A stretch of DNA of 61,649 nucleotides, filler included, from Bipalium vagum (taxonomy: Eukaryota): NCBI GenBank assembly GCA_037834085.1. It is 3 parts of 3 records of this genome, joined end to end, with 100 filler letters (N's around TTAATTAATTAA, not from the genome) between each part and the next. Parts side by side here need not be neighbours in the genome. Positions count along the whole stretch, not along the records: positions 19,619 to 40,226 come from JBBMKC010249493.1; 2 more parts are not named here. One strand, 5' to 3'. Both the position numbers and the translations under genes were made by a program. Numbering within the stretch: position 1 is the first letter of the stretch; every line of letters starts with the position of its first letter. The notes under the pieces were generated by a model. That model searched no databases. It worked only from the letters and a program-made list of their open reading frames with translations, and was not told the DNA's origin. This document shows, piece by piece, positions 1,298 through 57,180 of this stretch.

Positions 1298-1342
1298 GTA
1301 AGTGAATTATACTTTCACATTAATCATATGTTACGTTTTCAG

Positions 1343-6719: not shown

Positions 6720-6778
<59 letters not shown>

Positions 6779-11500: not shown

Positions 11501-11599
11501 AAAAAAAATCATTCTTACATTCAAATTTGATAGATAAATCATATTTTTAAAATAACATACATTATTTATGTACTACAAGTATCTTAAAACTGACTTCAT

Positions 11600-12204: not shown

Positions 12205-12784
12205 TAGCAGCTTTTTACTTAAAATTTTATTCTACAGTGTGCGTAAAAGTATCTCATTAAAAAGATGCAAAACACTTTTTTTAAATGTTAAAGTTATAAA
12301 TTTTTTTAACAGCACATTTTACGGATGGTAGATTTGGAGAACAGGGTCATTTCATTGGGCGGCAAGATCATAAGAATTTTCTCCAATGGTATTTTTTAAC
12401 GATATCTAAAGAAAAAAGTTTTTATAAGCAAATCAAAGAACCTAAAAGATCTGGCGAATGCCATCGAAGAAGAGGAAGATAAAATTTTACCAAAAATATG
12501 TAAAATATGTTGACATCTTTTTATTGTCGATTAAAAATTGTATTAGTGTTAATGGATGTGATGTTAAAAAATATTAATATTTAATAAATTTTTTCATTGT
12601 ATCTAAAATTCTAGTTAACAATATATCATTTTAAAATCTGATACTTGTTACATTCTGTAAAATACATTTTTATGCAAAACTACAATATAACGGGTTGTAT
12701 TTTTTATCAACGAATATCGAATGAATTACTGTCTATTATCAATAATTAATGAAAATAAAATTGATAAAAATTAATTACTTATAG

Positions 12785-13249
12785 ATTTGGAAGTGTTGGT
12801 CAAGATACTTTATTGTGTTTGTGGGAATTAACTGAAGATGTTATCAGACAGGCTCTAAAATTTTCAAACAATCAAAAGGAAAAGACTAGAATAGAAATTT
12901 CCAAAATGAACAATGATGACAACATTTTACACTATTCAGATTATTTATCTTGTATCTCGTCATCGACTATGCCGAAACTTAAATTGAAAGGCTCATTATT
13001 GAAAAACACCAAGGTCATCAGTAATAACCAGAACGATTCTAATCTTCACATACATAATCAGTCTACCTATTCCACGTCTTTAAGTCAAAAATTTGTATAC
13101 AGTCTTGGAGGAATTCTTGGAAATGGTCCTTCAAATATTGATAGGAAGCATTTCACATTCAGTGGAGATAGTGTCTCATTTAAAACATCTCATCAAAAAA
13201 CCTCAGAAAATAAGCAGAATGGTTCCACAACTATCGATTATGATAAAAA
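12785..13249 (+). CDS. WDR20: WDR20 exon 5
   Basis: (R)FGSVGQDTLLCLWELTED continues YR from exon 4; phase-2 donor at 13250. Confidence 0.88.
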
Positions 13250-13490
13250 GTAATTTTTTTTATTTTAAAAGAATCATCTTTAAATTCATTGAAAATGAAA
13301 TCGATTGATAAAAAAATATTAAATTCAATAAAAATGTTTATCACAAAAAATTATAGGAATTATAAATTTATAGTAAACTTCAATATTAATCAATATTGAT
13401 TTAATGAACAACAAAAAGTTTGAAATTTCCATATTACAAGAAAGTATTCATTGATTATTTCAACTTTAAAGTGTGAAGTGAATAAATGCA

Positions 13491-14680
13491 TTAGGTGTTA
13501 TTAAAAAGGTAATGTATTTATTTTTAAACGACAGGGATTCAAAAAATCAGTCATCAACATAATATCCATTATTGGAAATCACTTTTTGCCATCTTTCAGG
13601 TAATTGCTGAATCCCGGAACGATAGAAAGATATTGGTTTTGACGCAAGATAATTCTTGACAAAATCTCGTATCTGGTCAACATTTTTAAACCGACATCCG
13701 GCTAATTCATGTTGCATTGAGCGAAACAGTTGAAATTCTGTAGGAACAAGGTCTGGAGAATAAGCCTCGTGAGGATAACTTCCCAGCCTAACTGTAAAAT
13801 CGGCATTGTCATGTAGCAGGACATCTTACGCGATCCTTGCCCGAAAAAATCTTTTTCTCGATTTGTTTAGCCAAATGTAGCAATTGTTTGCTATAACGTT
13901 CTGCATTAATGGTTTCACCAGCTTGGGGGAGGTCATAATGAATGGGTCCTTTGATATCCCACCAGATGCAAAGGAGTACTTTTTATTGAGAATATTTGTT
14001 TTAAAAACTCAAGTTGCTCGCATTCCAGAGTCCATCAACGAATGTTTGCGTTTTGGATTATTGGAATTAATCCATTTTTCATCTCTAGTGATGATTTTCC
14101 ACAAAAAGTTTTTTTTATTCGTCTATCAATAAGGGATGCGCATGTTGTTAATCGGCATAAAATATTGCTTTCGGAAAGTTCGTGCGAAATCCACTTTTCA
14201 GCCTTCTGAATTTTTCCCATGTGTACCCGTCTCCCAACAGTTCTTTGATTAACGGTAAGTTATTTAGCGAGTTCTGCTTGCGCCTGGGCTGTATTTTTAT
14301 TCAGCAGATTTTCCAATTTGGCTGATTCCAATATCAGTCGAGAACCACTACGTGGTCGATTGGTAACATCAAAATTTCCTTGTTTGAATCGACGATACCA
14401 GTATTTACATATTATTATTACCAAGAATGGAACATATTGATTTAAATGTCTGGGATGCATTTTTGCCTTGATCAAATTCATATCTTCTACAACACCGAAC
14501 GTACAATTTTGAAAACTGATATTTTGGTTTTTATAAAATAATTGTAAAATTAATATATTTATAAAATTTAATATATTGATTACCAATGTAAAATTTATTT
14601 TGATAATTTATTTATTTGATAATATTTGGATTAGTAAAACAACGATGAAAAAAAGGTTTAAAATTTATGTATACACCTAA
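13491..14680 (-). mobile_element. Near full-length degenerate mariner transposon
   Basis: TIR starts ttaggtgt / acacctaa+TA; WYRRFKQGNFDVTNRPRSG, KWISHELSE, DEKW, YSPDLVP, QLPERWQKVI. Confidence 0.9.
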
Positions 14681-16199
14681 TATATGAACAGTTCACTATC
14701 AAATGTTTGAAAATTGTTTACACATTTAATTGAATTTATTATTAATAATTAATTATTATTATTATTATTAATTGAAAAATTTGATTATCAAAATACTTAC
14801 CGAAGTTGTTTTTAAATTACAATGCTTTCAAGTTTTGAAAATATTAGCTTCTATTAAAGATGAATTGATTTTAATAATCAAAAAATATAATCAAGAAAAT
14901 TTTAATTGAAAGAGAAAATATAATAATATTATATGAAGTGTGTTACATTGATAATCAATTTATGATCAATTTCTATTTATTTTTTGAATATTTAATTGTT
15001 TAATTTACTTTTAGTAATTTCGTGATAATAATAATAAAGTTATAAATTCTTTACAAATATTAAGTATTGCAGAACACAAAATAAAATTACTGTAAATGTT
15101 CTTATTTAATTATTTTAGAGATATGAAATTAAATTAAAAAATACTTAAAATTTAAGGAGTTATTAGAAATTATTTTTAAAATGACATTATTATTATTAGA
15201 TTAAAATAACAATAAATATCGGAATAGTTAGTAGAAAATAGATACCAACTGTTTCTTTGTTTAATAATTCAAATATTTTCTTTATGCTCAAATTACGTTT
15301 GGTTACATTAATTAAAGAGTTATATGATTAATTAATAATTTTTTGCCATAAGATAATATAAGATAAGATAATGCAAAAGTGATAATAAACACAATTTTGT
15401 TTACAATAAAATTTGAAACTCAAAGTAACAACCAAATCTCTATCAATAAATGGAATGTTTAATTATCTTTTGTTTTCGTCATTTCGTCATTTTCAAAAGC
15501 AAAATTTAACCTAAAAAGGCAAAGTATAAATAAAAATTATAGGTTTAATTTTTATTTATAAAATATTATTTTATTATAATAAATTATCAAAAAATATATT
15601 CAATATTTATTCGTGAAGTTTAACGAGATATTTTAAAATGAAAATTTATTTGATAATAATATCGACTTAAATTAATATTAATAATGTAAAACAGCAAACG
15701 AAAATCGACTTCATTCAAATAATTTTTATTGTTACATACATTAAAATGATCAGGATATTGTTTACTTAATTATTTTATGGCGACTAGTGGTCAATTTGAT
15801 GAATACATTGTAATTAACTTTTTCCTTGGGGAATAGAATTTTTAATTATAAAACTTGAAATAGAAGAGAAACTTGGTTATGATCAACTTTGTTGGAGAAT
15901 ATAATCAATATATACAATTAAATTCAGCATGTTTATAGTCTTAACTTAGATTATTTTGATTCAAATTTTAAAACAATCATTAAAAGGTATAATTCATTTT
16001 GGTTAGCATAATTCAAATTTAATGAAAATTTAATATATCCTGTTTTCATTACCATTATCTATAATGTTAACTTGTTTCGATGTCAAAAAATGAAATTTTA
16101 AAATTGTTTGATTTATTGAAATCAAATTCATGCTTGCATGTTTGCCTCTCTCTTTAAGTTACCTTTGAACTAAAGACTGTGCATAAATTTCGTATACCA

Positions 16200-17330
16200 A
16201 TTTATTTCTTTGATATTTTAATGATTTTAGATATATTTTAATATTGCTTGAGGTGACATTCAGTTCTTCAATATCTTTGTTTGAAAGGATTCTCACAAGC
16301 AAGAAATAAAGAAAGTAATGAAGGAATATGTTTCTATTGCATTGATTAAAAAATGGTGGCAAACATATAAGGTGTGGGAAGTGATAGAAAGTATGGTTGC
16401 CCTGAAACAAAGTGTATAATTCTGAAAGAATCTCATGATGCTTCCTTATCAACTGTGGTTATAAGAGATTCAAGTTAGACGATACAAGTCCACAAGCAGG
16501 AGTTATTTGTCGAAGGGCTGAATAGTTATCATAAGGGTAAGATTAGTGAGTTAATTGAGTCACACATTAAATGGAGACTACACTTTGTCATTAAATTTTT
16601 AATGAAAGCACTCAATTTTGGTCCAGAGTAATTCAAATTGATGAGAAGCAGTGGATTCTCCATGATTCGAGAAAAAATCGATCTTGGCAGCGATACCGTG
16701 CTTTATGTCGTAAAGTTGTTCCAGGTATTCCTCAAATGCAATATGTCAGCAAATTGCACATTTATGGAATCAAAAGGAAAGTCAAACCTTATTTTTATCA
16801 AAGGAAGTATCAATCAGACGTCAATGATATACGTTATGTTCCAACAGAAATCGATGATGTTTGATTTATTGAAAGAATTAGGAGACATTTAATTAATTCT
16901 GCTTGTAAACAGTCTATGCCAACAACAGCTCATGTTACTGTGTCATTTGCAGTGATAAAGAAGAGATTGAAATTGAAATGTGGTCAGAAGATTTGGCTGA
17001 CAATTCTCTGATATGTTTGTTTGCTTTTTTGTTAAATAAATTGTGTTTATTTTAACACATGTGAATGGTCAGTTATAAGACATGCATTTGTAAACTTGGG
17101 GAATGAATTTTAGTTCAGATGTACTTAAAATTTTTAGATTATACCAAGATTATACCAATTAAACGAATTTGTTAACGAAGCTTATGAACAGACCTAGCTT
17201 ATCACTTTTTATAACTTATTGCTTTTCTCAACATATCGACTATTGAAATGTTTTTTGTGTCTTCTGTGACAGTCGAGTTTTCTTAAATTCTTAAAGAAAT
17301 TTTTCCAACCCATTTGCCATTTTTATAATC
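16200..17330 (-). mobile_element. Highly decayed Penelope-like retroelement remnant
   Basis: Weak motifs LLTTFQFQ, YIIDV and RFFLESWRI resemble PLE RT and GIY-YIG segments; boundaries approximate. Confidence 0.3.
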
Positions 17331-17538
17331 ATGCATATAAAGTTTAAAAAATATCGTCAATTTTTAATTCTGTCAATTCAAAAATCGAAAAGTTTAAACC
17401 AGAAAAAACAAAATTTTAAAATGATATTAATTTTTTGAAAATTTATCTTTTTTTAAAATAAATCGATTTTAAGACAATTTTGCATATTTTTTAATGACTT
17501 TCTCTTTTTTCTGTATAACGAAACTATTTGGAATTTAG

Positions 17539-17887
17539 ATATTTAGGAACCTCACAGTGTCCAAAGCTTGAAGATGTTCCGATATTAGAACCAATTGTTT
17601 CGAAACATGTTTCTAATGACCGCCTCACCGACTTAGTTTTCAGAGAAGAAGCAGTTTTGTGTACAAGTCAGCAAGGAACAATTTATGTTTGGACAAGACC
17701 AGGATACACTGTGATCAAAACCATTTGTAATAACACAGAAATCGACGGTAAATCGTCAGTGTCTCTAAATTCTCTCAATCAAACTGTTAATCTGGGTAAC
17801 AGTAGTTCATCTTGGTTGCAAAGAAATTCCAGTCTGAAAATCAATAGAACTTTGCAAAAAGGTGGTCCAACAGGAACAATTTTTTAA
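17539..17887 (+). CDS. WDR20: WDR20 exon 6 (last)
   Basis: LGTSQCPKLEDVPILEPIVSKHVSNDRLTDLVFREE...IYVWTRPG is the WDR20 C-terminal motif; TAA at 17885-17887. Confidence 0.9.
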
Positions 17888-22770: not shown

Positions 22771-23014
22771 TATATCTTAAAATATCACTGAAATGTTAAA
22801 CGATAATTTAAACCAATTGTTATATTAAAATACCTCCTATTATAATATTGACATAATAACTTGATAGTTACAAAAATAGCTTGAGTGATCATATAGCAGA
22901 CAATGTCTCAAATCGCCAGAGCTTTTGTAATGATCTAATATATTTTGTTCTTTTAATATTATTTTTATTAAATTTTGTATTTTTATATTTATAAAAAAAT
23001 TTCTTTTGTTTTAG

Positions 23015-23230
23015 CTCCAAAGTGTCAGAAATCAACAATAACATATTTTGATACATCATCCATGGAACTATATCCTGATATCTCATATATGAATAATATT
23101 GTAAAAGTTCGGTGTAAAGAAGGATATTTTTCAAGAGAAGGCATAGAGTACAATGTCAAGTGCCAATTTCGAGGAATTAATGCTGAGCCTAGTTGGGAAA
23201 AATTAACATCTCCTGATTTAATATGCGAAA
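23015..23230 (+). CDS. Sushi/CCP domain exon 1 of receptor
   Basis: PKC...VKVRCKEGYF...VKCQ...PSW...ICE; phase 1-1, AG/GT. Confidence 0.85.
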
Positions 23231-24269
23231 GTAATTTTATTTATTTAATAGATTCTTCTAAAGGAATAAGATATTATTCTCGCTTATTAAAAAAATAGAT
23301 TTTTGTTTAATATTGTGAGATTCAATAGAACTCAACTGTTTAGAAAAAGAGATATCCTTTTCTTTTATTATTTTGATAATTAACTTCTCAAAAATCAAAA
23401 TAAATTCAATTACGACTCATAATTTATGAGGTAATTAAATATCAACAATTATTTGTTAATTTTTAATTATCTAAAATTCCACTTCTTTATGAAAATACGG
23501 TAACTTCTCTACATTTCTTTCAAATTACCAACCTTGGCTGTCTCTCAGACGATAACGCCTATCATGAATTTTGTCCGGAATTTCAATTTTTTCTGATTTT
23601 CCGTTTTCTGTTCCATTTTTACAATGATTTGTTCTTTAATTTTAAACAGTTTTTGAGTAGTATCTAGTACCCGTTAGATGATTTTATCTGTGAATCTTTT
23701 TAAAGATATGCTGATAGTTATTTTATGCAAATTTTTTTTCTAAAAACTTTTCTGTTGGAGAACCTCAAAAAGACCTTAGGTAAGTGTCATTTATCGTAAA
23801 CTTAACCTCTTGAAATCTAGTATCCAAAATTCTAGATTTTTTTTCAAGATCTGCAGCAAGCAGTCCCGTTACAGTCTTGGTCTTATCGTTCACCAAACCT
23901 GACATCAAATGATCATTGGTTTTGGGGTTTATTGAATGTAAGGGCTTTCCATTACAAAACATAACAAAAAATATTATGGAACTGGAAAACCGAATAAAAG
24001 ACAAACGCTGCCGTTTTACTCACAAAGAGCTACAAACGGCAATATTGTTCTTTCCACGAAGAGTTGATTTGATTCTTTAAGATGAAGAAAAACATTTTGA
24101 GAAAATCTTATAGAAAAAATTTGGTACTTGTCTTATTAAATACATCTTTTGTCTATTTTATTCATCGTTTACTTTATTTTTTGGTTTTGGAACAACCTAT
24201 TTATTTTTCCACTTCATGTGTCTTTATTCGATCAAATATTAATAGCTCTGATTTCTGAAATTTCATCAC

Positions 24270-25000
24270 CATCTCATTAGATCCAGTTGTAGATTTCTTT
24301 ACGAAACGAGTGGCATTTTTCTGGATTGAGCCGCAGACCTGCTTTTTGAATTTTACTCATCACTCTCTCCAATACTTCATAAAGAGTTTCTTTATCAAGA
24401 GTGAAAATCAGAATGTCTTCTAAATATGTCATTGTTCCATGAATACCAACTAGGGCATTCACCATGAGTTTTCGAAACGTCCCTGATGCCGCAGCTCTGC
24501 CAAAAGATATTCTATTGAAATAATATTGATCATCCTTGGTTGCAAATGCAGGCTTCTCCTGTAAACTTTCCTCTAATTTTACATCATAATAAGCTTTCAG
24601 TGGTCTACTGATGTAAAATATTTGACATCTTTCCGAAAATCAAGCATTTCCTCGATGTTCGACATCGGAAAAATTGTTTTGATTGTAATAGTATTTAATT
24701 ATTCGAAGTCCAAACCAAATCGTATCTATTTCTTGTCGTTATTCCAAATAGTCACCATTGGTGAGTTCCAAAGAGAGTTGCAACATTTGATAATATTGGT
24801 TTCCAAAAAAATTCTGAATCGCCTAGTTAATCTGTTTTTCTAGATCTAGAGGTTGACGATATGGCTTAACAAGAATCTGATCTCCATTTATCAAAATCTT
24901 TTGTTTGACTTACCTTTTGCATCAAACCTACAACATATTAATTTAATTAAATTCTTCGAAATGCCAATTTTGGAGGTTGTCATACGTTAGAAGACATATA
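24270..25000 (-). mobile_element. Ty3/gypsy-like reverse transcriptase remnant
   Basis: RISFGRAAASGTFRKLM...YLEDILIF...LERVMSKIQKAGLRLNPEKCH. Confidence 0.75.
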
Positions 25001-25689
25001 CTGCGAATGAAGGTCCTTGTGAAGGTATTATGAAATAAACCTATATATTTTATATCTTGAAACTTGAAAATAAAGTTCGTAACACTTGTACTTCATATCT
25101 AGTCCGGTTATTTATCTCACTCACAATGTATGTTCCTTTAAACAAATATTAGATGATGTTGAACTTGCTTTTAACTCAAATACAGATTTTCCTTTAAGAT
25201 AACATCAATCTAAATATGTTTATTTACGCCACAATTCAAAACCCGTTTTATAATTAATTTGACACACAATTCTGTCTTCATTGAAAATCTGTTGGAATAA
25301 ATTTTGATATAGAATGACTATTTGTTAATTTAGCTTCATTTATTTAAAATGTTCTTCTAGCGATCCCAAGGAAAATTTCCATTTTTATTTTATTTTTTTT
25401 AAATAAAATTTAACATTTTCCTCATTTTTTAAGATAAAACTAGTACATTTTTCATACAGTACATATCATTACTCTCAATACTTTCATTTGTCCTTTTAAT
25501 ACTTTTTACATTCATACCTTTTTAATACAAATTTTCCCGCTATTCATATTTTTTCACACTTCATAGTTTCATTCGTAGTTTTATTAGTTGTAATTTTTGA
25601 AGAAATTTAATTTTTTATATTTGATATTTTTTAAGAAGGGGTTAAGAAATGTAAAAAATAGGATCTACATTTCATATTACTGTCATATT

Positions 25690-25985
25690 GATATTATTGA
25701 AAGTATAATAGTGCTCCACTAAGCAAATTCCAAAGTGAAGAATTTTTTCTAGAGACCAAAGATAATTGTTTTGTGGTTTATGACGGCCATAATTAATTAA
25801 AATTCTCATAGAACTGAAGAAAGTATCACTATAGAATGTTACTCTTATCAACTCGACATGTTCCATGAAAAACTGAAGGAAAAATGTCTAGCATTAATGA
25901 ATCATGACAGCCGTTTGTTTTTGCACGATAATGCTTTGGATTATGTCTCCAAAATAATGGTCCAAAAATTTCAGGAACTATATTA
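25690..25985 (+). mobile_element. Mariner transposase fragment
   Basis: ITIECYSYQLDMFHEKLKEKCLALMNHDSRLFLHDNA. Confidence 0.65.
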
Positions 25986-26169
25986 AGAAACTTTACCTCT
26001 TTTTCTGCTGATTCCAAATTTTGACTTGTAAATAAAATAAATAAGGAAAATAAATAAGAAAAAAGCTTATTTCAATTTTAAAAAGTGCTAATTTTTTTTT
26101 AATATAAAATTAAATAAATATTAAAAAAACATTGTTTAAGAAAATTAAATTAAGGAAATTATTTTTTGC

Positions 26170-26195
26170 GATTACACAACTTTAGAGTATATAAA
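26170..26195 (+). promoter_or_regulatory. UBL core promoter: ATTACACAAC (C/EBP-like) plus TATATAAA
   Basis: Both motifs are conserved at the same spacing upstream of all four UBL copies; TATA begins 38 nt before the ATG. Confidence 0.6.
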
Positions 26196-26225
26196 GACAT
26201 ACATTGAAGATAAAAGTATCAAAAT

Positions 26226-26456
26226 ATGAAGATTACTGTATTTTATGAAGATAAATCCTTCTCAATGGACGCTCATGAAAATGAGACAATTTCTCAGCTA
26301 AAAGAGAAACTAGGAAGTCAAGAAAACTTAAGTTTTGAACATTATCAAATGTTGTTTGAGAAGAAAAAATTGGAAGAAAATAAAACTCTCCGATTTTATA
26401 AGATCAAATGTGGATCTGTATTTCTCCTGGTACCTTTTCTGAAAGGTGGATATTAA
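26226..26456 (+). CDS. Divergent ubiquitin-like protein, copy 1 (76 aa, ends LKGG-Y), nested in receptor intron
   Basis: 23/76 identities to ubiquitin by hand alignment; di-Gly; TATA box upstream and AATAAA at 26461. Confidence 0.88.
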   Translation: MKITVFYEDKSFSMDAHENETISQLKEKLGSQENLSFEHYQMLFEKKKLEENKTLRFYKIKCGSVFLLVPFLKGGY

Positions 26457-26761
26457 TGTAAATAAACTTTAGTTCACTAATTTTCTTATCGTTTCGATAT
26501 TTACTTCACTAATCAATTAACGTTTCATTTAGTAAAACTTTGTTATCCCTTATTTTCTTTGTTATCAGTAGTATAAGGTAATATTTTTTAATTTAATTTT
26601 ACTTTTCTTTTTTATAATTTGGAGTTGTATACAACGTACACTGCAACCAAAATCTTTTTTCCTTTTTTTAAAAGCAAAATAAGTTTGATCTCTTAATTAA
26701 TTTTCCTTCTGAATTTCAGTAAAAGGGTAATCAACTATTTCAAGTACAATCTATGGCTATG

Positions 26762-27420
26762 TATTGGGTAGTCTAAAACGTTTCCGCCGATTTTGGTAAA
26801 ATGAAAAAGTTAGAAAAATAAAGTCGAATTGAAAATTTTATTAAATTACATAATGATAAGATTTTTCAATCAAATCAACAGTTCCACAATGTACTTATTT
26901 GAAGTTAGAATTATGTTCAGTTTCACCTTGAATGGATTTTGTATGAAATTGTATAAGAATCACCGAAAGAATTTAAGATACCAAGAATATTTTTGGAAGA
27001 AAATTTTTAAAATGTCACATTGTGTCTGATTGATGAAATATCTCCATTAGAGAACTTGTCGAAAATAGTTTGACATATCTAAGTAAAACATAATTTATAT
27101 AATGTAAGGAAACGGAGTGTGCAGAAATGAAATAATGAGACTTTCTAATCGAATCAATGTCAAGGAGAGATAAAGACAAAATATCTGATTTAATATCTTT
27201 ACTCTTCATGATTTCAAAATCACTTTCATAAACTTTAAAACTCTTTGGTGTGATAAAAATAATTCTGTTCTGAAAAAAATTTTCTTCTAATCCTCCGAGG
27301 AAGCTGAAAACTGGATCAAAGATTGGATGGCCACCAAAGATGGCGATTTCTTTTATCGAAGAATTATTCGGCTTCCTGAAAGTTGGGAGTGTTGTTATTA
27401 ACGATAGAATATATAGTTTG
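26762..27420 (+). mobile_element. Decayed mariner remnant
   Basis: TIR-like tattgggtagtctaaaacgtttccgccg; C-terminal WIKDWMATKDGDFFYRRIIRLPESWE. Confidence 0.55.
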
Positions 27421-27822
27421 AATAAATTATCTTTGTCATTATATGCTTACTATATATATTACTTAAAGAAACAATAAATAAATGAACAATATTGTAAAAA
27501 CGGTTCATTTTCAATGCATAAACCGAATATATTAATGAAAAACAGAGATTTACTATGTGTTGATGTACTCGGTGTCGTACTCGGTGATGTACTCGGTTGA
27601 TGCTCTTAAGAATTATCATTTCGTGTTGGTTTTATTAAAAGACTTCTACTAAGCAGATTAAACGATAGCCTTCTTTTAAAGATTATTAATATATGAACAA
27701 TCTTTGAGCTATAATTGTTTTTTTCCAAGGAAAGAATGACTAAAAGAATTCTTAAAAAGAAATTACAACATATTTAAATAAAATTTTAAAAATAGTGATC
27801 GTTTATTATTATATATTTATAG

Positions 27823-28047
27823 AAGTGACCTGTAAAAAACCTGACGACCTTGTACGTAATGCCTTTAAAGAACCTAATCAAGATAAAGACTATTATGAGC
27901 ACGGAGACGAAATTAATTATAAATGTGATCGAGGCTATGTTAATTATATGAATAAAAATCAAAAAACGGCTTCCATAGTTTGTCAGCAATCAAAAATTGA
28001 CAAGACAAAGGGCATATGGCAACCAGAATCATTGGAAATCTGTAAAC
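27823..28047 (+). CDS. Sushi/CCP domain exon 2 of receptor
   Basis: VTCKKP...YEHGDEINYKCDRGY...IVCQ...GIW...ICK; phase 1-1. Confidence 0.88.
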
Positions 28048-28773
28048 GTAAGTTTCATGTGTTTTTTGAAAAAGAGAAAAAATCCACATGGAATCCCAAT
28101 TTACAATGAAATCTAAAGTTGATAAATGAAAATAAAAAGGTTTTAAAAGGAAAATTTGATGGTAAAAACAAATTGAAATTTAATATTAAACCTTAAAAAT
28201 AATATAATATTTTACCACATTTCTTCAACACTGGAAGAATGAATACAAAAGAACTATTTTTACATTAAAATTAAATCTACACTATTTTGGATATTTTACC
28301 TGAAGACTATATTATGGGGTTAATAAAAGAATTTTATTTTAATTTTTACATTATTATTCTTATTTATATTTTATATTTTTTTATTTTTACAATGAAAGTT
28401 TTTGTTTGATTTTCTAATTGACTAAATGTTAACAAATTTGGAAATACTCTATATTTTATTATCATATCATAAAAAATTATAATAGGATAAATAATAAGAT
28501 TTGCGAATGAAGGATAATCAGCATTAGCGGTGTCTGTCATTTGGTATCCATGGTCGGTCTACATAGTAAGAAAAAACTTTACATAGCCGTTGGAAACAAA
28601 ATTTGAATTCAAATGGTGACTATTTTATTGAGTAAATGTTTTATGTTTGTTCATAATGCTGCTTTACTTTCATATCTATGGGCCGGATATTTAAAATGAA
28701 AATACCCAATAAAATATTATTGTAAAATATAAAATACGGCAATATTAAATTGTACTAAGATTAAAATAATGAT

Positions 28774-29107
28774 TGTGAGATAATTTGAAAATTAATCGGG
28801 GAAGAGAGCAGTCCGTGAGCATGTGAAAGGTTCCGGGTTCGAATCCCGGTATCTCAGATTAATTTTCAATTAACACGGAGACCACACCAGATAGAGATCT
28901 CGAAAGTGAATAAAAAAGGAAAAAGGAAAGAAAATGGAAGTAAAAGACTCGAGGTAGGTCGGGACTTGGATGTGAGTTTCAAAGGAGGGGGATGTAAGAT
29001 AAATTGAAAATTAATCGGGGATGTAACTCAGCAGTCAGAACAGTTCATGCACATGTGAAAAGAAATGGGTTCGAATCCCGGTATCTCCAATTAATTTTCA
29101 ACTAATA
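28774..29107 (+). mobile_element. TRIM-like non-autonomous LTR retrotransposon with tRNA-Ala-derived LTRs (LTRs 28774..28875 and 28993..29107)
   Basis: Two direct repeats starting TG and ending CA/TA; PBS-like cggagaccacaccag after the 5' LTR; PPT aaaggaggggga before the 3' LTR; flanks atgat/ctgat; 117-bp noncoding interior. Confidence 0.8.
29017..29089 (+). pseudogene. tRNA-Ala-derived sequence inside the 3' LTR (not a bona fide tRNA gene)
   Basis: 73 nt GGGGATGTAACTCAG...GGTTCGAATCCCGGTATCTCCA; acceptor stem has the G3:U70 alanine determinant; anticodon arm degenerate; 5' LTR copy reads ...AGCATGTGAAAGG like tRNA-Ala(AGC). Confidence 0.7.
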
Positions 29108-29237
29108 CTGATAATTATTTTAAATTTATTTACAATTATTTATTTTTAAATATTTCCTCTTGTATAAAAAATTTGAAAATAAAATTTTTTTAGTTTTTAC
29201 AAATAAAAAAAGATAAAATATTTATAATTATTTCTAG

Positions 29238-29522
29238 CTATAAAATGTAACTTGGAGGAATTGGAATTGTTAATGCCAAAGAAAGCTAAAATTTTAAAAG
29301 TGAGAAATAGGATAACCCAAAAGGAATACAATGTGGAGTTTCAAAAGAATCAATTCTCAAATTTTGACAATATCGTGGAAATTCAGTGCTATGATAAATT
29401 ATTTTTTTCGGATAGAAAAACTACGAAAAACTTTATTTGTGATTTAAAAAATCAATCAGAAATCGAAAGTAAGTGGGACGGGTACGGAGGAACATTATTA
29501 GATGTAAAACTTGAGTGCATAT
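29238..29522 (+). CDS. Divergent Sushi-like domain exon 3 of receptor
   Basis: IKC...VEIQCYDKLFF...FICD...SKW...LECI; phase 1-1, gtaagt donor. Confidence 0.8.
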
Positions 29523-29699
29523 GTAAGTTATTGTTTATGTATCAATAATAATTATAAAGATTCTTAGTTTAATTTTAATAAAAACGAAACATTTTCTTAA
29601 AATCCATTCAAGAATAGTCTCTAATATTGTCTTAATTATTTAACATTATTATGATACGTATAAATATGTTCAATATATCAGCCTGTGAGTTGGAAGTAT

Positions 29700-30790
29700 C
29701 GTTTTTTTAACAAGAACATTTATTATAAAAAAAATTAACACATATTAGTTCAAATGATATTCTTCGCCAGTATCAATTATCTGTCTAATGAATGGATACA
29801 TTTCTGCAAGAATTCGACATTAACATTTACGAATTAACTGATCCGGGGAATTGGCTGTCAAACTACCGTCATATACATTCTGCTTCAAATGACCTCAGAA
29901 AGTCTCAATTGGGCCTAATATAGGAGCACATGGATGATTGTTATTGGTATATTTTGGGCTTTCAACCAGGTCAATGTCTCCTTTGAATAATGGCATAAAG
30001 CAAGATCAGGCCAGAATAAAAAGTGAATAGTTGAGTATTTCTCATTAAGAAACGGTAAAAGATGCTTGCTTAAACACACTCTTTCATATAAATCTCAGAG
30101 TTCAGGGCTTCTGTGTTAGATTTTCCTATGCACAAACCAGAAACTCTTCTTTTGGTACTTTATTGTTGGCAAGAATATTCACATAGAAGCCAGAATTTTG
30201 GGCTCCTGCCAAAGTAAAATAACTTTCATCATCAAGCACTAAGTGCCTCTTTTTTTATTCATCACAATTCCAGACAGTAATCGCAAACGAAATTTCTGAC
30301 GGAGAATCTGTGATGCTGACACTTTTGGACCTTCTTTTCTTTTTCTATTATAATAAATACAACGCGGTTCTTTTTCAAATATTAAATTTTCGAGATAATT
30401 TCCTAACACTCAGATTTTCTGATGCTGGAGCACTCTTTAAAAGTCGTTGCTTCTTTTTTGTGGTCATTTTTAAAGCTTTGCTTTCAGTTCCCGGTTTTCT
30501 TTCTAAGTTCCCAGTCCTCTCTTAACGTTAAATGATGGAATATATTGCTCGTCTGCAAAAATAAAGCCCGGTAAGTTGTCACAGTTTCAGTTTTCGTATG
30601 ACTTTCCTAGTATTTTATTATATCTAGATGTCGAGTTGACATTTTTGGATTGCGCATAATACTGTTCTTCATTCAGATAAATAAAACGACTTCTTATTAT
30701 GATAATTAACATTGATATTCATATATACATCAAAACTTAAATAATTAAAAAAATTTTTTTTCTATGTTTATCAAAGTGGCCCGTAAAATA
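29700..30790 (-). mobile_element. Degenerate Tc1/mariner DD37E (TRT-like) transposon
   Basis: DDESYF, LFWPDLALCHYSKET and PILGPIETF-GHLKQNVY motifs. Confidence 0.7.
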
Positions 30791-31350
30791 TTGTGCACTT
30801 CTTTAAGAGACACGCATTACTTCCATCACTAACATTTAATGGTATGGAAAATTCTTGGCTTCAGACTCTTAGATTAATTTTAAGAGCTTTTCTTAAATCA
30901 TAGTTATTTATGCAGCTTGGTCTGTCGGAAAGAAATGCATCTTTGGCGTTTTCAAAACCTTCTAAAAATTTTTAAACAAATTTTGATCAGTTCTGTCAAT
31001 AACTAGATTGTCTCCGAACGCTGAAAAATCTTTTAACTTGCTTCAGTTTCATTTGAGCCAAATTTCTATTCATATAACAAACAATAGTGATTTGTGTCCT
31101 TGTCAGAAGACATTTCTGAGGATTCTAAAGATTAAAAACGATTAAATTACATATTTCAAAACAAACTTACTAGATAAATAATTCGTTTGAGTTGGTTAAA
31201 ACAAATAAGCAGCGGACTAACAATGTAATCCAAAAGTTGTAAATTACTAGGAAATAAGAATATTGAAAAACAGAAAGAACCTTTTTGGTTACCTATTAAT
31301 AAAATTTAATATGTAACACATTAAAAAATATTTATTAATCAAATTTTTAG

Positions 31351-31596
31351 CTGTTTCTTGCATGTATGAGGATGTGCGAAATGACATATGCGAAAACATA
31401 GAAAAGGTTTTTCAGCTTCTTAACTCCAAAAAGGAAATATCCAATATTTCCACCCACAAAGGAATGCTTTACAATTACACAAACGAGTTGACATTTTATT
31501 GTATCAATGATTACACAACAGGAAATCAAGAAAAGCATCAAACAATTGTTTGTGGAGGCGCAGGGGTCTGGATTCCGAAGTTGACATCTTGCATAA
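31351..31596 (+). CDS. Sushi/CCP domain exon 4 of receptor
   Basis: VSC...LTFYCINDY...IVCGGAGVWIPKLTSCI; phase 1-1. Confidence 0.82.
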
Positions 31597-31710
31597 GTGT
31601 GCTTTGTTACTTTGTCATTGTAGTGAAAAATATCATCTTAAGTATTACAGTTATTCATATTTAACAAACATTTTTTATTTTAAGATTAACTGTAAATTAT
31701 ATTCATTAAG

Positions 31711-31961
31711 AACAAACTGAAGCTGTCAATACTGGCTCGAAGAAGCATTACATACCTCCATCAAAAAATGCTGATAAGGCACAAGAAATTGGAGTGACCG
31801 TTATCATTATATTACTATTATTTCTTTCAATTATTATCATACTTGATTTTTCAAGAGTTGCTAAGGACTTCAAAATGTTGAAAAAGAATATCAAGATTTT
31901 AAAAAAATATCTTGATACTAAAAAGGAATTTGATGTTGAGAATTATCAAAAAGTTGAATAA
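31711..31961 (+). CDS. Terminal exon of receptor: transmembrane helix and short cytoplasmic tail
   Basis: IGVTVIIILLLFLSIIIILDFSRVAKDFKMLKKNI...VE*; AATAAA overlaps the stop. Confidence 0.8.
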
Positions 31962-32776
31962 AAATCTCTTGCATTTTATCTTTTATTGATTTAATTTCTC
32001 ATTGAAGATGTGTGAGAATTGTTTGTATTTTTAAGAATTTCTTGTTTAACTTTGTCCGAAATATTTTTTTGTAAATTTGAATTAAATAATATGGAAGTGC
32101 AAACATTGGGAAATTTATAAAAATATTTTTGTTTAATAATAATAATAATAACTGAATAAATGGAAAATGAGTAAATGATTCAACAAATGATTTTGAAATT
32201 CGATTGTTCCGTTTGATTAAAATTAAATTTGTTTATAATAATTACAAACATCAATGAACCGATTTCAATTTAGATTTTAAAATTAAAAAAAATTTTAAAA
32301 AAAGATTTTAATATTATACTGATATATTACGGTAATATTTTATACAATTTACAATCATAAATAAAGTTATTGTTAAAAATGCTTACATATAATATTTTTA
32401 AAAAATTTTGGCTCATCTTAAATATTGAGTAAATTTTTTTAAAAATTCTTAAAATTGATTTAAGTGAGAAAACTTAATAGTATTAAGTACACACATTATT
32501 TGAAGTTGCAAATTAATTTTGTTAAATTCACAAAATATTTTTATATTATTAATATAGTGTTTTTCAAAAGTAGTAGAGCGAACTTTGAACAATAATTTTA
32601 AAACTATATTACATTTTATAATAAATTTAAAAAGTGCTCTTTTCATTTTTAATGTAAAATTAAATAATATTAAAAAAAACATTGTTTAAGAAAATTAAAT
32701 TAAGGAAATAATATTTTTCCAATTACACAACTTTGGAGTATATAAAGACATACATTGAAGACAAAAGTATCAAAAT

Positions 32777-33007
32777 ATGAAGATTATTGTATTTTATGAA
32801 GATAAATCCTTCTCAATGGACGCTCATGAAAATGAGACAATTTCTCAGCTAAAAGAGAAACTAGGAAGTCAAGAAAACTTAAGTTTTGAACATTATCAAA
32901 TGTTGTTTGAGAAGAAAAAATTGGAAGAAAATAAAACTCTCCGATTTTATAAGATCAAATGTGAATCTGCATTTCTCCTGGTACCTTTTCTGAAAGGTGG
33001 ATATTAA
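32777..33007 (+). CDS. Divergent ubiquitin-like protein, copy 2
   Basis: 3 nt differences from copy 1; same TATA and polyA context. Confidence 0.88.
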   Translation: MKIIVFYEDKSFSMDAHENETISQLKEKLGSQENLSFEHYQMLFEKKKLEENKTLRFYKIKCESAFLLVPFLKGGY

Positions 33008-34510
33008 TGTAAATAAACTTTAGTTTATTAAGTCTCTCATATTTTTGATATTTATTTTATTAATCAGTTAACTGTTCAAATAATATTCAAAAAATATTTA
33101 GTGCTTTTTATATATTCAAAAAAACATGTGACAAAAATGCACTTTCTCCAGTCATTTAATTCGTTTACAATTTTTCGAAAAACGCAATTTTTCAGACAAT
33201 TAATTATAAAACTTATTTAAATAAACAAAGAAGCAACAGTTGATATATGAAATTATATATTTAAGGGAAATTTATATAATAAGTTAGTGTAATTAATGGA
33301 ATGATATAAAAAAGAACCAAATTTTGCACCAGCCTAATATATTAACTAATTAATATTACAAATAATTTGGCAAGATTTTCGAATTCAATTTTTAATCGAT
33401 TTTCTGTTTTTTTCTTTCAGCCGAAATAACAAACAAGAAGTCAGTTTTTTGACTTATCCCATTTATAATTTAATCTCATTTATCCTGTCATTGGATTATT
33501 GTTAATTATCTGAGAAAAATGTCTGCATTTTTAACGGTCTCACGAGTGCGATCAATTGATTATCATGAAATAACTTTTGGAATAACTTCTGAAAGGAAAC
33601 TACCACAAAAGAAAATACGAGGAATTTGCTGAGGGAAACATTTATTGTGGAAAATTCATTTCCAGAGATTTTAATAGAGCAGAAGTTAAACAAAAGGCAG
33701 ATGAGAGATTTACAACATTCAAAATTTGGGTCCATAACCTTTTATGCAACTTAATGGATTCTGGATTATTACAGGAAGAAATGATTTCAAATTTCCTCCT
33801 AAAAAGTACAAGGAGCAAAAGACTCAAAGAAGCACTTATGACGAAATATGATATTTAAGTTGAAGATATCAGATATTTACTAAAACTTTATGAGAATAGG
33901 AATCAAAGAAGTTCTAAAAAGTGAATGGTGCAAGTAAACACTAAGAGACACCTGAGTTACGCAAATATAGTTTAGGGTGGACAATATCAAAGATGACCAA
34001 AGCCTCTGAAAAACTGTACTCAAAACTAATCAAACCAGCATTATGGGATCATTATAGCAATTTGAATGGGAGAATCACCTGATGCTAAGAAACCGTGATC
34101 TCTAGGATGATAGACCGAGTAAACATGAGTGCTTTCTCTTGGTCGAAGAGATCATCCAGCATTCTCGATGAAACAAATTGCATGACGGCTCTATAATAGA
34201 TTTAGGGGTTTATTTACAACCTAAAGACGAACACCTAAGGTCAGGTCAGTGTTTTGTTGTGGTAGTGGGGAAAATTAAAGAATGTATGCTTAATAAATGG
34301 GAAGTACGGAAATCGTTTTCAGTTTTGCCTACTTCTGGAAGAGAGTGAAATTCTGATGGAGAATAATGGATAATGCTTTTTTAAAAAATCTTTTTATTCT
34401 TTCTTGGACTTGTCATGTATTATTTACAATTACTTAGGTATCAACTCAACAATAATATCTTTAAAAATATTAATAATATCCTGATCTATTATGGTATTAT
34501 TTTGGACGAA

Positions 34511-34680
34511 TTAAAGCTGACAGCCCCAAACCCGGTCAATTAAATCTCACCACCACTTTTTACAACCAACTAAATCTGACAACCCCGATAAATAACCAAT
34601 TTAATTTCACAACCCCGTTACGCACTCGCACTCAATTTAATCTCACAACCCCAAATTTTTGGACAAATTAACACAACACT
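34511..34680 (+). repeat. Subterminal ~27-bp repeat array of Merlin (left)
   Basis: Recurrent aatttaatctcacaacccc core. Confidence 0.8.
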
Positions 34681-35444
34681 GAAATATTAATATTTCATAA
34701 AGTAAATGAAAAAAATTAATTAAAACAGAGATTTATTAAATTTTAACAATAACAATATTTCATTAAATGAATTTTCTTTGAACAAGTCTAAGAATAAAAA
34801 TTCATTAATAAAATCTTCTCTTTTGTTTTCACCCATTCCTTGAATATCTTTTATTTTTCTTTTTAACTTGTTATTGTAGCTTTCTAAATTTTGTGTATAG
34901 ACGCCAGCATCTGGATCAACAAAATTGTATTTATGTACAACCGTATTATGTTTGTAGCCAGAATCTTTCTAACCCAAGACGTTGTAAGAATGGGCTTCAT
35001 CTGTATAAATCATTGATCCAAATTGAACCACCTTTTCTATAATAGGCAAAATTGTGACACTTCTTTTATCGGATATAATGTCGGTGTATCCTCTCGCTGG
35101 TTTAAAAGAAGTGTCAACAATGGTTAAAAAACAAGTTGCTGCAATTGGCGTTCTTCCTCTGTGAGCTTTGACATAGTGATTTATTTTTGTTTCATCATAT
35201 TGCACTGTCTGACCAGGGCCACCTAATCTTATGGGATTAGTTATCCATTATCTTTGATCTGTAAAATTATAAATTTTCTAAGTCTAGTGTAGACTGGGGC
35301 TGATAACTAGCATTCTTGTTTAATTTCAGTAAATTCAGAAATTCAAGAACCTGTTCTTATACTTAGACTGGATTTATATTTTCTACAGATATTGTTGTCG
35401 CCTCTCCATACAAAACCATCTGATGTCACTTTAAATGACATTGT

Positions 35445-35627
35445 CAATTTAACACAACCAGTTAAATCTCACAACCACTTTTTACAACCATCTAAATTTG
35501 ACAACCCCGATAAATAACCAATTTAATTTCACAACTCCATTAAACAACTAATTTAATCTCACAACCCCGTTATACAACCAATTTAATCTGACAACCTCAT
35601 GATGCTACCAGTTAAATCTCACAACAC
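35445..35627 (+). repeat. Subterminal ~27-bp repeat array of Merlin (right, same orientation as left)
   Basis: Recurrent ttaaatctcacaac core; shares a ~80-bp block with the left array. Confidence 0.8.
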
Positions 35628-35951
35628 TGGGGTTGTTAGATTTAATTCGTCCAAAATGTTTTTTAAAAATTTTAAAATTGATTTAAGTGAGAAAACTTAA
35701 TAATATTAAGCATAAATATATTAACATGCAAAAATGTTTTTGTTAAATAAACAAAAGAACATATATTTTTATATCATTACTATATTACATTTTATAATGT
35801 AATTTAAAAATTGCTCTTCATTTTTAATGTAAATTAAAATAAATATTAAGAAAACATTGTTTAAGAAAATTAAATTAAGGAAATAATATATTTCCGATTA
35901 CACAACTTTGGAGTATATAAAGACATACATTGAAGATAAAAGTATCAAAAT

Positions 35952-36182
35952 ATGAAGATTATTGTATTTTATGAAGATAAATCCTTCTCAATGAACGCTC
36001 ATGAAAATGAGACAATTTCTCAGCTAAAAGAGAAACTAGGAAGTCAAGAAAACTTAAGTTTTGAACATTATCAAATGTTGTTTGAGAAGAAAAAATTGGA
36101 AGAAAATAAAACTCTCCGATTTTATAAAATCAAATGTGAATCTGCATTTCTCCTGGTACCTTTTCTGAAAGGTGGATATTAA
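35952..36182 (+). CDS. Divergent ubiquitin-like protein, copy 3
   Basis: D15N plus one synonymous change versus copy 2; same promoter and polyA context. Confidence 0.88.
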   Translation: MKIIVFYEDKSFSMNAHENETISQLKEKLGSQENLSFEHYQMLFEKKKLEENKTLRFYKIKCESAFLLVPFLKGGY

Positions 36183-37689
36183 TGTAAATAAACTTTAGTT
36201 CACTGATTTTATTATCGTTTCGATATTTATTTTATTAATCAGTTAAGTTATTTTAATTTTATTTGTTACCAGAGCTAATAGATAATTTAAATAATATTTA
36301 AAATATGTTAAAATCTCCATATATTTAAATTGGAGATATCATTTTTAACTGCTTACTATTTTCTAATTTATGCCATAAGAGTTAGTTGTATCCATTTAAA
36401 ACAAAATTTCATTTTTCGTTTTAAATGGATGTGATTTTTGGGGATATTTTTGATACCTACGTATTTTTTGAAACTTTCTTTAGTAGCATTTGCTATGGTT
36501 TCTTAGCGATTGTAATATCTACGGAAATAAAAAGTTGTTTTTATAAGTCTTTATAGTTCTTTTCAAATCCCCTACCTGATCTTATGATATTCAACCAAAC
36601 TTGTTTTTTCCACAAAATATTAATAACTAATTTTCATACTTTACTAATCAATGTTCTCTTATTCTATTTACACTTCAATTATATATTTTAAAAATTCTTT
36701 TAATATTCCTTAAATTTTGCTTTTTAAAATGTGTAATTTAAGATTTTTATTTAATTATTAATTTTAAATTATGTAAGTCGCAAGCTTCACTGTTACAAGG
36801 GGGCTCACCAACTCCCTCGAAAGAAGTGTAAATAATAGAAATTTCACGAATAAACAATGCGATTAACAAAATAAGGTATATTTGTTATCACAAATGCAAG
36901 GTTAGAAATCTAATTTACAATCAATCAATATTCAAAATTACACACAATTATTTAATTAATAAAATACTTTCTTGACTTTAACGATAGTTGAAGAAGTCCT
37001 GGTATAAAAAATGACTATTCTGTCGCCCAGAGCGAAGCAGAATCGAATAAGTGAGAGAACAATAAAAAAGAATAAAGAGAATATTAAATTATTAATTATT
37101 TATTTATTTAAGTTTAACTCGATCGGTTAAACACTTGGAATTAATACAGATTCCTTACCTATTATTATCACCGGCGTCCTATGAGCTTTTCCGAACAGAT
37201 ATCAAATCGTATTCTAATTTTTAAGGGTAATTTGAATATGAAAACCTAGAGTTTATATACTCCTGTTTTCCACATTCTAGAGCTTCACGTGAGCTCTATT
37301 TTAACTTAATAAATATAAATTTATATGTGAATGATTTCTATTTTAGGTAAGTTTGTTTTCCTAATATTAGAATTAGAGTAAGTGGTTACTTTTTTTTAGT
37401 AACCCTACATTCAAATCATTTATTTATATTAAGTTACTTTGTTTTATAAATTTTGAAAATAATAATTTATCATGCTGGTTAATATTTTAATTAATATTTT
37501 AACTCCACTTTTTATATTTAATTTTACTTTTATTATATTTTAAAAGGATTATTATTTAATATGATTAAAATAATTTTATTATTCAAGTAATAATTTTAAT
37601 TAATGATGAATTTAATTTAACCGCCATTACTGTTTATCGATCCTTGAAGAAATAAAAATGATATCCCAAGGTTACTTAAATATCATCCA

Positions 37690-38204
37690 ATAATTATATT
37701 ACGTTAGGGAGACAAAAAGTAGACACACTTTCATAAAATTAAGAAGAAAATTGAAATCTTACTCTGAACAATTGTCAAAATCGACATCGAAGGGAAATAT
37801 TCATTGTAAAGTGTGTATGTTGGGACCAATGGGTGCATTGTGTTACGAGTTATTAAGAGTCACTGTTGAAGTTTAACAACAAATGATAGATTTTAGTGTA
37901 TCATTGAAAAATAGTGACCTAATTATGCAAAAAGGCACACGAAAAGACACGATGTAACCGGTCTCATGTTTCCTTGAAGTTTCGCAGCCGCATCTCAACA
38001 ATATGAAGAAATAAAAATAACTCAATAAATGTTTCTTTTCGAAAGACGAGTTTCTCCGTCAAGGACTTCAACAACTTCAGGTCAGATGAGAAAAAACAAT
38101 AGTAAACGATGGAAAATACTTCGATAAATGTACACTATACTGTTTTTTCATAATAAAGTGTCTTCGTAACAAAGAACAAACAGAATTAATATACATCCAA
38201 AATA
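37690..38204 (+). mobile_element. Decayed mariner remnant
   Basis: PKSTSKGNIH...YELL and NDGKYFD C-terminal motifs. Confidence 0.5.
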
Positions 38205-38718
38205 AATAATTATTTATCCGGTACTTTTATATTAAATGAATAAAAAACAATTACAGTACTAATTAAAATCATTGAAAATTAAAAAAATCTTTTCAATATT
38301 TTTGAATCAAAGCTATAAAAAATAAAAATTAATTAATAAAATAAATGAGTGAAGAAAATCTCTGAATAAATGAATGACAATTAGTTTTTTAAACTAAGTA
38401 ATTTGTGTTTTTAGGTTTTTAATCTAAAATAGAATTCAAATGTTTATTATTGTAATGATTGTAATAAATATTTTCAAAGAAAATTCATTAATTATTATTT
38501 GTTGGATTCTTAAGTCAATGTTGAGTGTCAGTGAGAAAATTGTAATAATAATAAACTAAATAATTTGATTAAATAATAATATAATAATTTTCTAATAATA
38601 CTATTCATGTTAAAAACTGCCAAATTCTTTGTTCAGAGTGAAAGATGCTTGAGTTAAACTGATTAATGATAAAAATATCGAAACGATAAGAGACTTAATG
38701 AAATAAGGTTTATTTACA

Positions 38719-38949
38719 TCAATATCCACCTTTCAGAAAAGGTACCAGGAGAAATGCAGATCCACATTTGATCTTATAAAATCGGAGAGTTTTATTTTCT
38801 TCCAATTTTTTCTTCTCAAACAACATTTGATAATGTTCAAAACTTAAGTTTTCTTGACTTCCTAGTTTCTCTTTTAGCTGAGAAATTGTCTCATTTTCAT
38901 GAGCGTCCATTGAGAAGGATTTATCTTCATAAAATACAATAATCTTCAT
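38719..38949 (-). CDS. Divergent ubiquitin-like protein, copy 4 (inverted)
   Basis: Same ORF with TGA stop; promoter cassette conserved at 38950-39100. Confidence 0.88.
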   Translation of the reverse strand: MKIIVFYEDKSFSMDAHENETISQLKEKLGSQENLSFEHYQMLFEKKKLEENKTLRFYKIKCGSAFLLVPFLKGGY

Positions 38950-39654
38950 ATTTGGATACTTTTATCTTCAATGTATGTCTTTATATACTCCAAAGTTGTG
39001 TAATCGGAAAAATATTATTTCCTTAATTTAATTTTCTTAAACAATGTTTTTTTAATATTTATTTTAATTTACATTAAAAATGAAATAAGCACTTTTTAAA
39101 TTTAAGATATTAATAATATAAAAGTATGTTTATTTATGAATTTAACATAATAAATCTGCAAATGTTTGATACCTTACACTCTTCATTTATCCTTATCCTC
39201 TTTAATATATTAATCCAAATAATCTTAACATTTAAAAAATGTAAATTTATCTTTAATTTATTAAAAACAACAAATGGTTTAGCATTATCTGAATTTTTAT
39301 TAATTATTGAAATTGAAATAACCTTTTTTCCTATTTATTTTCAAATACAAGTTAAAAATTAGAATCAGCTGTAAAAATAAACAATAATTTATTTTATTCT
39401 ACAAATAAAATTTTTTGACGTGAGTTTTTAGAAATATTTGCGAACTGAAAAATTAATTAAAAACTTATATTCAAATATTTTAAATCAAATAAGACCGAGA
39501 TTAAAGATGAATTTTCTGAAGATGAAAATCCTACAAACCTAACAATTTCACGTTATTTTTTATTAAAAGATGTACTTATAAATTAGACATTATTTTTATT
39601 ACTTTATTAAAGAGGAAACCTTTCTGGAAGATACAACAAAATGGATCATGTTTT

Positions 39655-41640: not shown

Positions 41641-41883
41641 AAAATAGATTTTAAAAAATAATTTTAAAATTTTTGAAATATTTGAATATCATTTGAAGAT
41701 AATGGAGAAGAATATAAAAATGACTGAGGAAGATCTGTATGAAAAGAAAGAAAAATAGTATTATAAATAAATTTCTTTTGTGTTTATAAGTGTTTTTTTA
41801 AAAAGCGTGTATTTAAATAATTTAATATATTATTTGATATAGACATTTTTGTATATTATTATATATTAAATATCAGAACTTAC

Positions 41884-42000
41884 TACAATGAGCTTCATCT
41901 TCTGCGTCTAAGCAATCCACGTTATCATCACAAATATATCCACGAGGAATCGTAAGACCATCAGAACACTTGTAAGATTTACCAATACAGGTATTCATGA
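41884..42000 (-). CDS. Second LDLa module exon (partial gene)
   Basis: TCIGKSYKCSDGLTIPRGYICDDNVDCLDAEDEAHC; 117 nt, gtaagt donor; 48-nt intron from the previous exon. Confidence 0.82.
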
Positions 42001-42048
42001 CTAGTGCACAAGACAGAAAATTTAATTATTTAAAAACATTATTTTTAC

Positions 42049-42186
42049 TATTATCACAGTTGGCTTCATCATAACCATTTCCGCAATCATCTTCTCCATC
42101 ACATATCCAATGTATTAGGAAATAGCTTTTCCTAGGTATTACACCTTCATGTTTTTGACACTTTTTAGAAACAGGGTCACATTCTC
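42049..42186 (-). CDS. LDL-receptor class A module exon (partial gene)
   Basis: ECDPVSKKCQ...HWICDGEDDCGNGYDEANC; 138 nt, phase 1-1, AG/GT; missed by the ORF track. Confidence 0.8.
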
Positions 42187-42399
42187 CTTAATAATTAAAA
42201 TTCAGTTAAAAACTTAATCTTTGTTTCAAGATATAGTTTAAATGCTTTTCAGAAATAAATTAATTTCTTATAATATCTTTATTTCTTACATAAAATATTA
42301 TATTATATATTTTTCAGTCACCAATTATAATTACTATTTAATATCAAGCATGAAGAACTTTTCAGTGTTGAGAATATCCTATTGCCAATTCTTCATATC

Positions 42400-57129: not shown

Positions 57130-57180
57130 CTGAAAAAACGAAATAAAACTTAGAAGAACAATGTTTATAAAATAATGTAC

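Follow-up and report, generated by a model that had tools for sequence, protein, structure and literature searches.

The stretch of DNA analyzed here, hereafter the window, comprises 61,649 nucleotides, filler included, from the Bipalium vagum assembly GCA_037834085.1 and carries four copies of a gene for a ubiquitin-like protein (UBL), all on one 20.6-kb contig (JBBMKC010249493.1; our C249493). As a preliminary description of the window had proposed, these are four intact, intronless open reading frames (ORFs) of 76 amino acids, uninterrupted from ATG to stop and each ending in FLKGGY. Copies 1 (26226..26456), 2 (32777..33007), and 3 (35952..36182) lie on the plus strand, and copy 4 (38719..38949) is inverted on the minus strand; all four were identified by ORF reading, and copies 1, 2, and 4 also by Pfam. 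Pairwise identity among the copies is 97 to 99%. Each ORF sits inside a duplicated unit of ~450 bp containing an upstream region, the ORF, and a polyadenylation-like signal (26068..26524, 32603..33076, and 35779..36249 on the plus strand; 38652..39109 on the minus strand), and the units are 93 to 95% identical at the nucleotide level, while their flanks are unrelated. By motif reading, copy 1 (GG-Y-stop) has a TATA-like box 38 nt upstream of its ATG (26188..26194, +) and an AATAAA signal 5 nt past its stop (26461..26466, +), and both elements occur at equal offsets in all four window copies and in a paralogue elsewhere in the genome, L005. Only 2 to 5 of 231 coding bases differ among window copies, compared to about 4 to 8% of positions upstream and 14 to 23% downstream. 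Because the units carry upstream DNA with the TATA box and no poly(A) tail, this pattern suggests duplication at the DNA level, with the ORF constrained or homogenized; the same features led us to reject a retrocopy origin. Contigs of run X1 tile introns and flanks at ~20 to 25 depth and abut the UBL copies, but X1 may be the source sample and is thus not independent.

The protein resembles ubiquitin in both sequence and predicted structure. Its identity to the genome's own ubiquitin is 31%, in line with the earlier estimate of about 30%, and Pfam PF00240 matched the three of four window copies scanned with E values of 5e-10 to 8e-9, above the cut-off. The structure prediction called for in the preliminary description returned a ubiquitin-like fold: an AlphaFold model built from an alignment of six family sequences shows the beta-grasp topology with modest confidence (pLDDT of 66, tail disordered) and superposes on 1UBQ with a TM score of 0.87 (Foldseek). 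Pfam and the model together assign the UBL a predicted beta-grasp (ubiquitin) fold. The residue changes listed earlier in ubiquitin numbering proved correct, with K11, K27, K29, and K48 kept and K63C, R42Q, I44L, H68L, R72F, and R74K replaced. To these we add L71P and, in the loop joining beta1 to beta2, a gap of one residue; L8Y is also present. The Gly-Gly pair falls at ubiquitin positions 75 and 76 and is followed by a single Tyr in all six family members. Given the window's G frequency, two Gly codons would fall at two set positions with a p of about 3e-4, and the place of the pair at the end of the tail is therefore not due to chance. Judged from its sequence, the UBL has the C-terminal Gly-Gly with short extension that marks a type I UBL modifier.

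A search of the same genome recovered two further family members, L005 (92% identical) and L006 (51% identical), for a total of six copies. L005 lacks one codon and shares ~1.4 kb of synteny with copy 1 (~80% nucleotide identity); its coding sequence is about 90% identical to the window copies versus 73 to 80% upstream. Both paralogues retain Pro-Phe-x-x-Gly-Gly-Tyr-stop, so that none of the six copies departs from P71, F72, G75, G76, Y77, and the stop, and the GG-Y tail noted earlier is conserved out to 51% identity. Silent changes have accumulated under P71 and G76, and the stop switches between TAA and TGA. The emphasis previously placed on K27 and K74 held for the window copies, where both are present, but not for L006, where they are replaced (F27 and E74). 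Nei-Gojobori dN/dS was 0.11 to 0.14 against L005 and 0.28 to 0.31 against L006, with Fisher p values of 5e-6 to 3e-4 in all nine pairs involving L005 or L006. Because the tail is kept in both paralogues and dN/dS is well below 1, we read the family as a gene under purifying selection.

We asked whether the UBL belongs to a known family. The preliminary description had set it apart from Ub, NEDD8, SUMO, FUBI, and UBL5, and the genome indeed carries each of these separately. Canonical ubiquitin genes are present, and the UBL, lacking the Arg72 tail and 31% identical, is not ubiquitin. NEDD8 has Ala72 and about 58% identity to ubiquitin; two bona fide NEDD8 genes are present, to which the UBL is 28% identical, and it is thus not NEDD8. 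Two separate SUMO-like genes are likewise present; with an N-terminal extension and a QTGG-type tail taken by us as the SUMO marks, the UBL is not SUMO, and its match to PF11976 was only borderline. Separate FUBI-S30 genes exist, while the stop of the UBL comes right past GG-Y. UBL5/Hub1 ends in di-tyrosine with no GG, and two UBL5-like genes are present separately. The two tandem UBL domains of ISG15 and FAT10 are missing from this single 76-residue domain. No UFM1, URM1, ATG8, or ATG12 Pfam family matched the window UBL at an E value of ≤1, a range in which HMMER filters drop most matches above 0.1. In a tree the family forms its own long branch apart from the genome's other UBLs. It would function in the manner of a type I UBL modifier yet lies outside every named family tested.

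The family had also been called lineage specific. Outside searches returned no orthologue, although their reach is weak below about 60% identity. Word-index searches of proteins of 41 to 133 amino acids gave no match with copy 4 (1 candidate) or with the six-copy alignment (96 candidates). A HMMER search of 1.84 billion representatives placed only multi-UBL repeat proteins among its best 150 matches, none with a PF-x-x-GG tail and with a best single-domain identity of 39%; with 92 bits for the 150th match against ~72 bits for the 51% paralogue, a single-domain orthologue less than roughly 60 to 65% identical could not surface. The ESM Atlas returned generic ubiquitin-family clusters and nothing closer, and none of 10 UBLs was found by exact look-up in a protein collection. 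In the portion of the open-access literature available to us we found no report of flatworm-restricted UBLs or of a third UBA1, though gene catalogues in supplements might list such genes.

The preliminary description had suggested looking for additional activating enzymes (E1s), and an extra UBA1 paralogue was found whose residue-72 pocket is remodelled. A ThiF search with exon reading identified three UBA1-type genes and single matches resembling UBA3, NAE1, UBA2, SAE1, UBA5, MOCS3, ATG7, and UBA6; we presume these E1 types from characteristic motifs, and UBA6 is supported also by tree position. UBA1-A and UBA1-B are 64% identical and keep the canonical crossover loop. UBA1-A (L085, C11241) includes a 667-aa intron-free stretch with a GC content of 0.36, higher than that of its intron-rich paralogue. 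The third, UBA1-C, whose exons were identified by homology on contigs C205955, C213035, and C224867 (L078, L079, L131, and L080), is 51 to 54% identical to UBA1-A, UBA1-B, and animal UBA1/UBA7-like proteins; against UBA1-A and UBA1-B the figure is 51 to 53% over ~400 columns. Among the best 120 of 4,769 homologue matches there was no close orthologue, the best reaching 64%. In a FastTree phylogeny UBA1-C takes a basal position on a long branch, which probably reflects long-branch attraction, and does not group with shark UBA7-like proteins. The exons are open and preserve the catalytic Cys as well as the ATP-binding motifs GxGxxG and NLNRQF; the domains, which in a UBA1-type E1 run in the order IAD-FCCH-4HB-AAD-SCCH-UFD, are spread here over the three contigs. 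At one exon boundary SYKALR is followed by VPDNAFPIC; C213035 ends where C224867 begins, at an intron position common to UBA1-B, and we infer the join there.

UBA1-C is altered at the surface that reads residue 72. Yeast Uba1 receives ubiquitin Arg72 in a pocket made up of N574, Q576, Y586, and D591, and the ubiquitin E1 is strictly selective for that residue (PMC3731359; PMC12355090). The corresponding residues in UBA1-C are S, Q, Y, and V or R, so the acidic pocket is missing. The crossover loop is one residue short, while 13 residues separate the conserved Tyr from the catalytic Cys in all of the best 120 homologues. At the D591 position UBA1-C has Val or Arg depending on gap placement, compared to Asp in 117 of those 120, and Lys stands where all 120 have Glu. 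Ser replaces N574, PQA replaces the usual TKG, and differences extend to the strand in contact with the Ile44 patch. The loss of the acidic partner in UBA1-C matches the Arg72-to-Phe change in the UBL. The genome's UBA6 retains the acidic pocket residue.

The UBL family is one of several divergent UBLs in this genome. There are 68 PF00240 matches, of which 64 were read (the other 4 are on short contigs), and we picked by eye 11 further short ORFs with a stop past the domain. Nine of the 11 have GG at positions 75 and 76 with 0 to 7 extra residues (L019, L020, L021, L031, L033, L034, L035, L037, and L048), while L024 and L026 do not. Arg72 is retained in three of the nine, which group in a single clade; the other six carry N, K, V, or G at that position, the last few aligned less surely. 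L033 has no in-frame ATG and may be a last exon. The UBL5 domains and the domains we take to be RAD23-like and elongin-B-like, all nonmodifiers, lack GG. L041 (697-3771, minus strand) contains a 1,024-aa open frame in which about a dozen divergent UBL domains follow one another in tandem, with no GG between them. Among conjugating enzyme (E2) ORFs (17 of 66 matches read), we recognized four divergent, intronless members that we presume to be UBE2D-like (L116, L117, L118, and L120), six apparently UBE2K-like members (L119, L121, L122, L123, L125, and L126), and one presumably UBE2Z-like (L127). The nine other GG-ended ORFs, the three UBA1-type genes, and UBA6 are new relative to the preliminary description.

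Altogether, we consider it probable, on grounds of sequence, that the UBL is a lineage-restricted covalent protein modifier. How it would be charged is less certain, and we give a route through UBA1-C a probability of roughly 45%. Under that proposal, the UBL would be transcribed from the TATA/AATAAA cassette seen in the sequence, and a protease of the UCH or USP type would trim the last Tyr and expose G76, by analogy to ubiquitin and NEDD8. A dedicated protease, as previously envisaged, is not required by the evidence, since a UCH-L3-like gene is already present. Both canonical UBA1 copies would refuse the UBL, because UBA1 requires Arg72 (in the sections consulted of PMC3731359) and the UBL has Pro71-Phe72. 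UBA1-C, with the features described above, might then adenylate the UBL and form its thioester, and some E2, for which the divergent UBE2D-like proteins and the UBE2K-like expansion are candidates, would hand it to substrate lysines. The conjugates would act as a signal distinct from ubiquitin. L8Y, R42Q, I44L, and H68L alter the surface in a way that ubiquitin receptors would probably recognize poorly, and the modification is therefore probably not a plain proteasome signal.

Several observations weigh against a UBA1-C route. Complementary substitutions are what connects it to the UBL, and it could serve another non-Arg72 UBL lineage or none. UBA1-C was pieced together by homology from three contigs, and its reference-projected exons leave gaps. 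Loss of the Asp is also not unique, as it is missing in 3 of the 120 homologues, all fish or ray proteins (P0052, P0109, and P0110). On the side of the UBL, neither the TATA nor the AATAAA motif was matched around the L006 ORF, and the four window copies differ by four amino acid-changing versus one silent substitution, which looks neutral for recent duplicates, albeit with small numbers. Finally, the assembly contains several COX1 types, and the UBL and the E1 might come from different organisms. A serious rival, though a rather unlikely one, is that the UBL is conjugated through UBA6 and the UBE2Z-like E2, the route that FAT10 takes, or through the NEDD8 E1, with UBA1-C serving other UBLs. 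UBA6, a UBE2Z-like E2, and UBA3 are all present, and the cited studies describe a UBA6 pocket that takes FAT10 Tyr161 at position 72 (PMC12355090) and an NAE that tolerates Phe72 in a ubiquitin scaffold (PMC3731359). However, FAT10 depends also on its second domain (PMC12355090, in the part consulted), which the UBL lacks; the acidic pocket residue is still in the genome's UBA6, and the body of the UBL is far from NEDD8.

Purifying selection demonstrates function rather than conjugation, and the UBL may instead be a ubiquitin-fold binder, or a decoy or inhibitor of a deubiquitinase or an E1, in which GG-Y is kept for binding. Pro71 and the variable residue 74 (K/E) are unlike known modifier tails, and the Tyr past GG is invariant whereas such extensions vary in other UBLs, including the two NEDD8 copies, so the Tyr itself could matter. 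Nonetheless, GG falls exactly at 75 and 76 in this family and in most of the other stand-alone UBLs, the nonmodifier domains lack it, and a spare E1 with an altered pocket is present, and we regard a nonconjugated role as unlikely. We think it very improbable that the copies derive from ubiquitin by duplication or retroposition and are now drifting, with GG left as a relic. The ORFs are intronless, the recent copies diverge near-neutrally, and ISXO2-like and reverse transcriptase fragments lie nearby, but frames are intact in all six copies, comparison with the two older paralogues puts dN/dS far below 1, L005 coding identity exceeds flank identity, and the units were duplicated with their upstream DNA.

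Comparison with known systems locates where the proposed UBL/UBA1-C pair would stand. The UBL shares fold, length, GG position, and K11/K29/K48 with ubiquitin, but the family has F72, P71, K/E74, Q/K42, L44, L/N68, and C63; it is neither a fusion nor a polyprotein, and its rejection by canonical UBA1 is predicted. With NEDD8/RUB1 and NAE1-UBA3 it shares a single-domain precursor, a short post-GG extension, and a hydrophobic residue 72, but identity to NEDD8 is 28% and the genome has two bona fide NEDD8 genes besides it. The earlier proposal of a UBL distinct from known ones is supported, and this UBL is stand-alone and under selection; the analogy to ISG15 and FAT10 is architectural only. To our knowledge, UBL conjugation cascades are few and the set is regarded as nearly closed, and the restricted cascades ISG15/UBA7 and FAT10/UBA6 are known from vertebrates. 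For ISG15 this restriction is stated in the part consulted of PMC9722776. The parallel with ISG15/UBA7 lies in the proposed logic, in which a duplicate E1 of the UBA1 type would serve a restricted UBL. By contrast, ISG15 is a two-domain protein ending in the ubiquitin tail LRLRGG (PMC12355090), whereas the window UBL consists of one domain with an altered tail, and in the tree UBA1-C stands apart from the shark UBA7-like proteins. FAT10 has an aromatic residue at position 72 as well (Tyr161 versus Phe), but two domains and a free GG end instead of one domain with a Tyr extension.

We can only tentatively suggest, as an idea we doubt more than we believe, that this flatworm lineage has evolved a private ubiquitin-like code, in which seven or more divergent modifier lineages ending in GG and without Arg72, the window family among them, are served by a respecified third UBA1 and expanded divergent E2s. 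If true, this would represent a tenth type of E1 cascade, one that arose independently of vertebrate ISG15/UBA7 and parallels it in an invertebrate. A Phe72-tailed UBL beside a UBA1 with a rebuilt pocket would be a natural experiment on the birth of an orthogonal E1-UBL pair, and the UBL could serve as a natural orthogonal-ubiquitin tool. It may also give UBA6 a role in an animal without FAT10.

The composition of the assembly bears on whether these genes share one genome. The best COX1 uses AAA where Asn is expected, AGR where Ser is, and ATA where Ile is, as in NCBI table 9; we take these positions to be conserved and the code to fit a flatworm, while presumably being common to echinoderms. 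There are two flatworm-code COX1 types (79% nucleotide identity) and a third COX1 in a nonflatworm code (loci L098, L099, L100, and L101, including a decayed nuclear copy of one type). Many genes of the assembly are paired at 69 to 85% nucleotide identity. The assembly may thus be polyploid or a mixed sample, although repeats common to the window and other contigs argue weakly against separate organisms.

Other features of the window surround the UBL copies. Sushi/CCP-like exons (22972-29548, +; one Pfam match at 27756-28106) lie on either side of copy 1, an arrangement that may place it within their intron. That the UBL is an internal exon of this gene is ruled out by its own ATG, stop, TATA box, and AATAAA and by the one inverted copy. 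Between the UBL copies lie fragments of an ISXO2-like (Merlin-type) transposase (34969-35247, −) and a reverse transcriptase (24277-24639, −). A WD40-repeat gene, which we take to be WDR20-like, spans 989-17887 (+) with mariner-like fragments in its introns. LDL-receptor class A exons and an exon that we presume to be synaptotagmin-like, which has no Pfam match, occupy 41873-42187 (−) and 56876-57388 (−).

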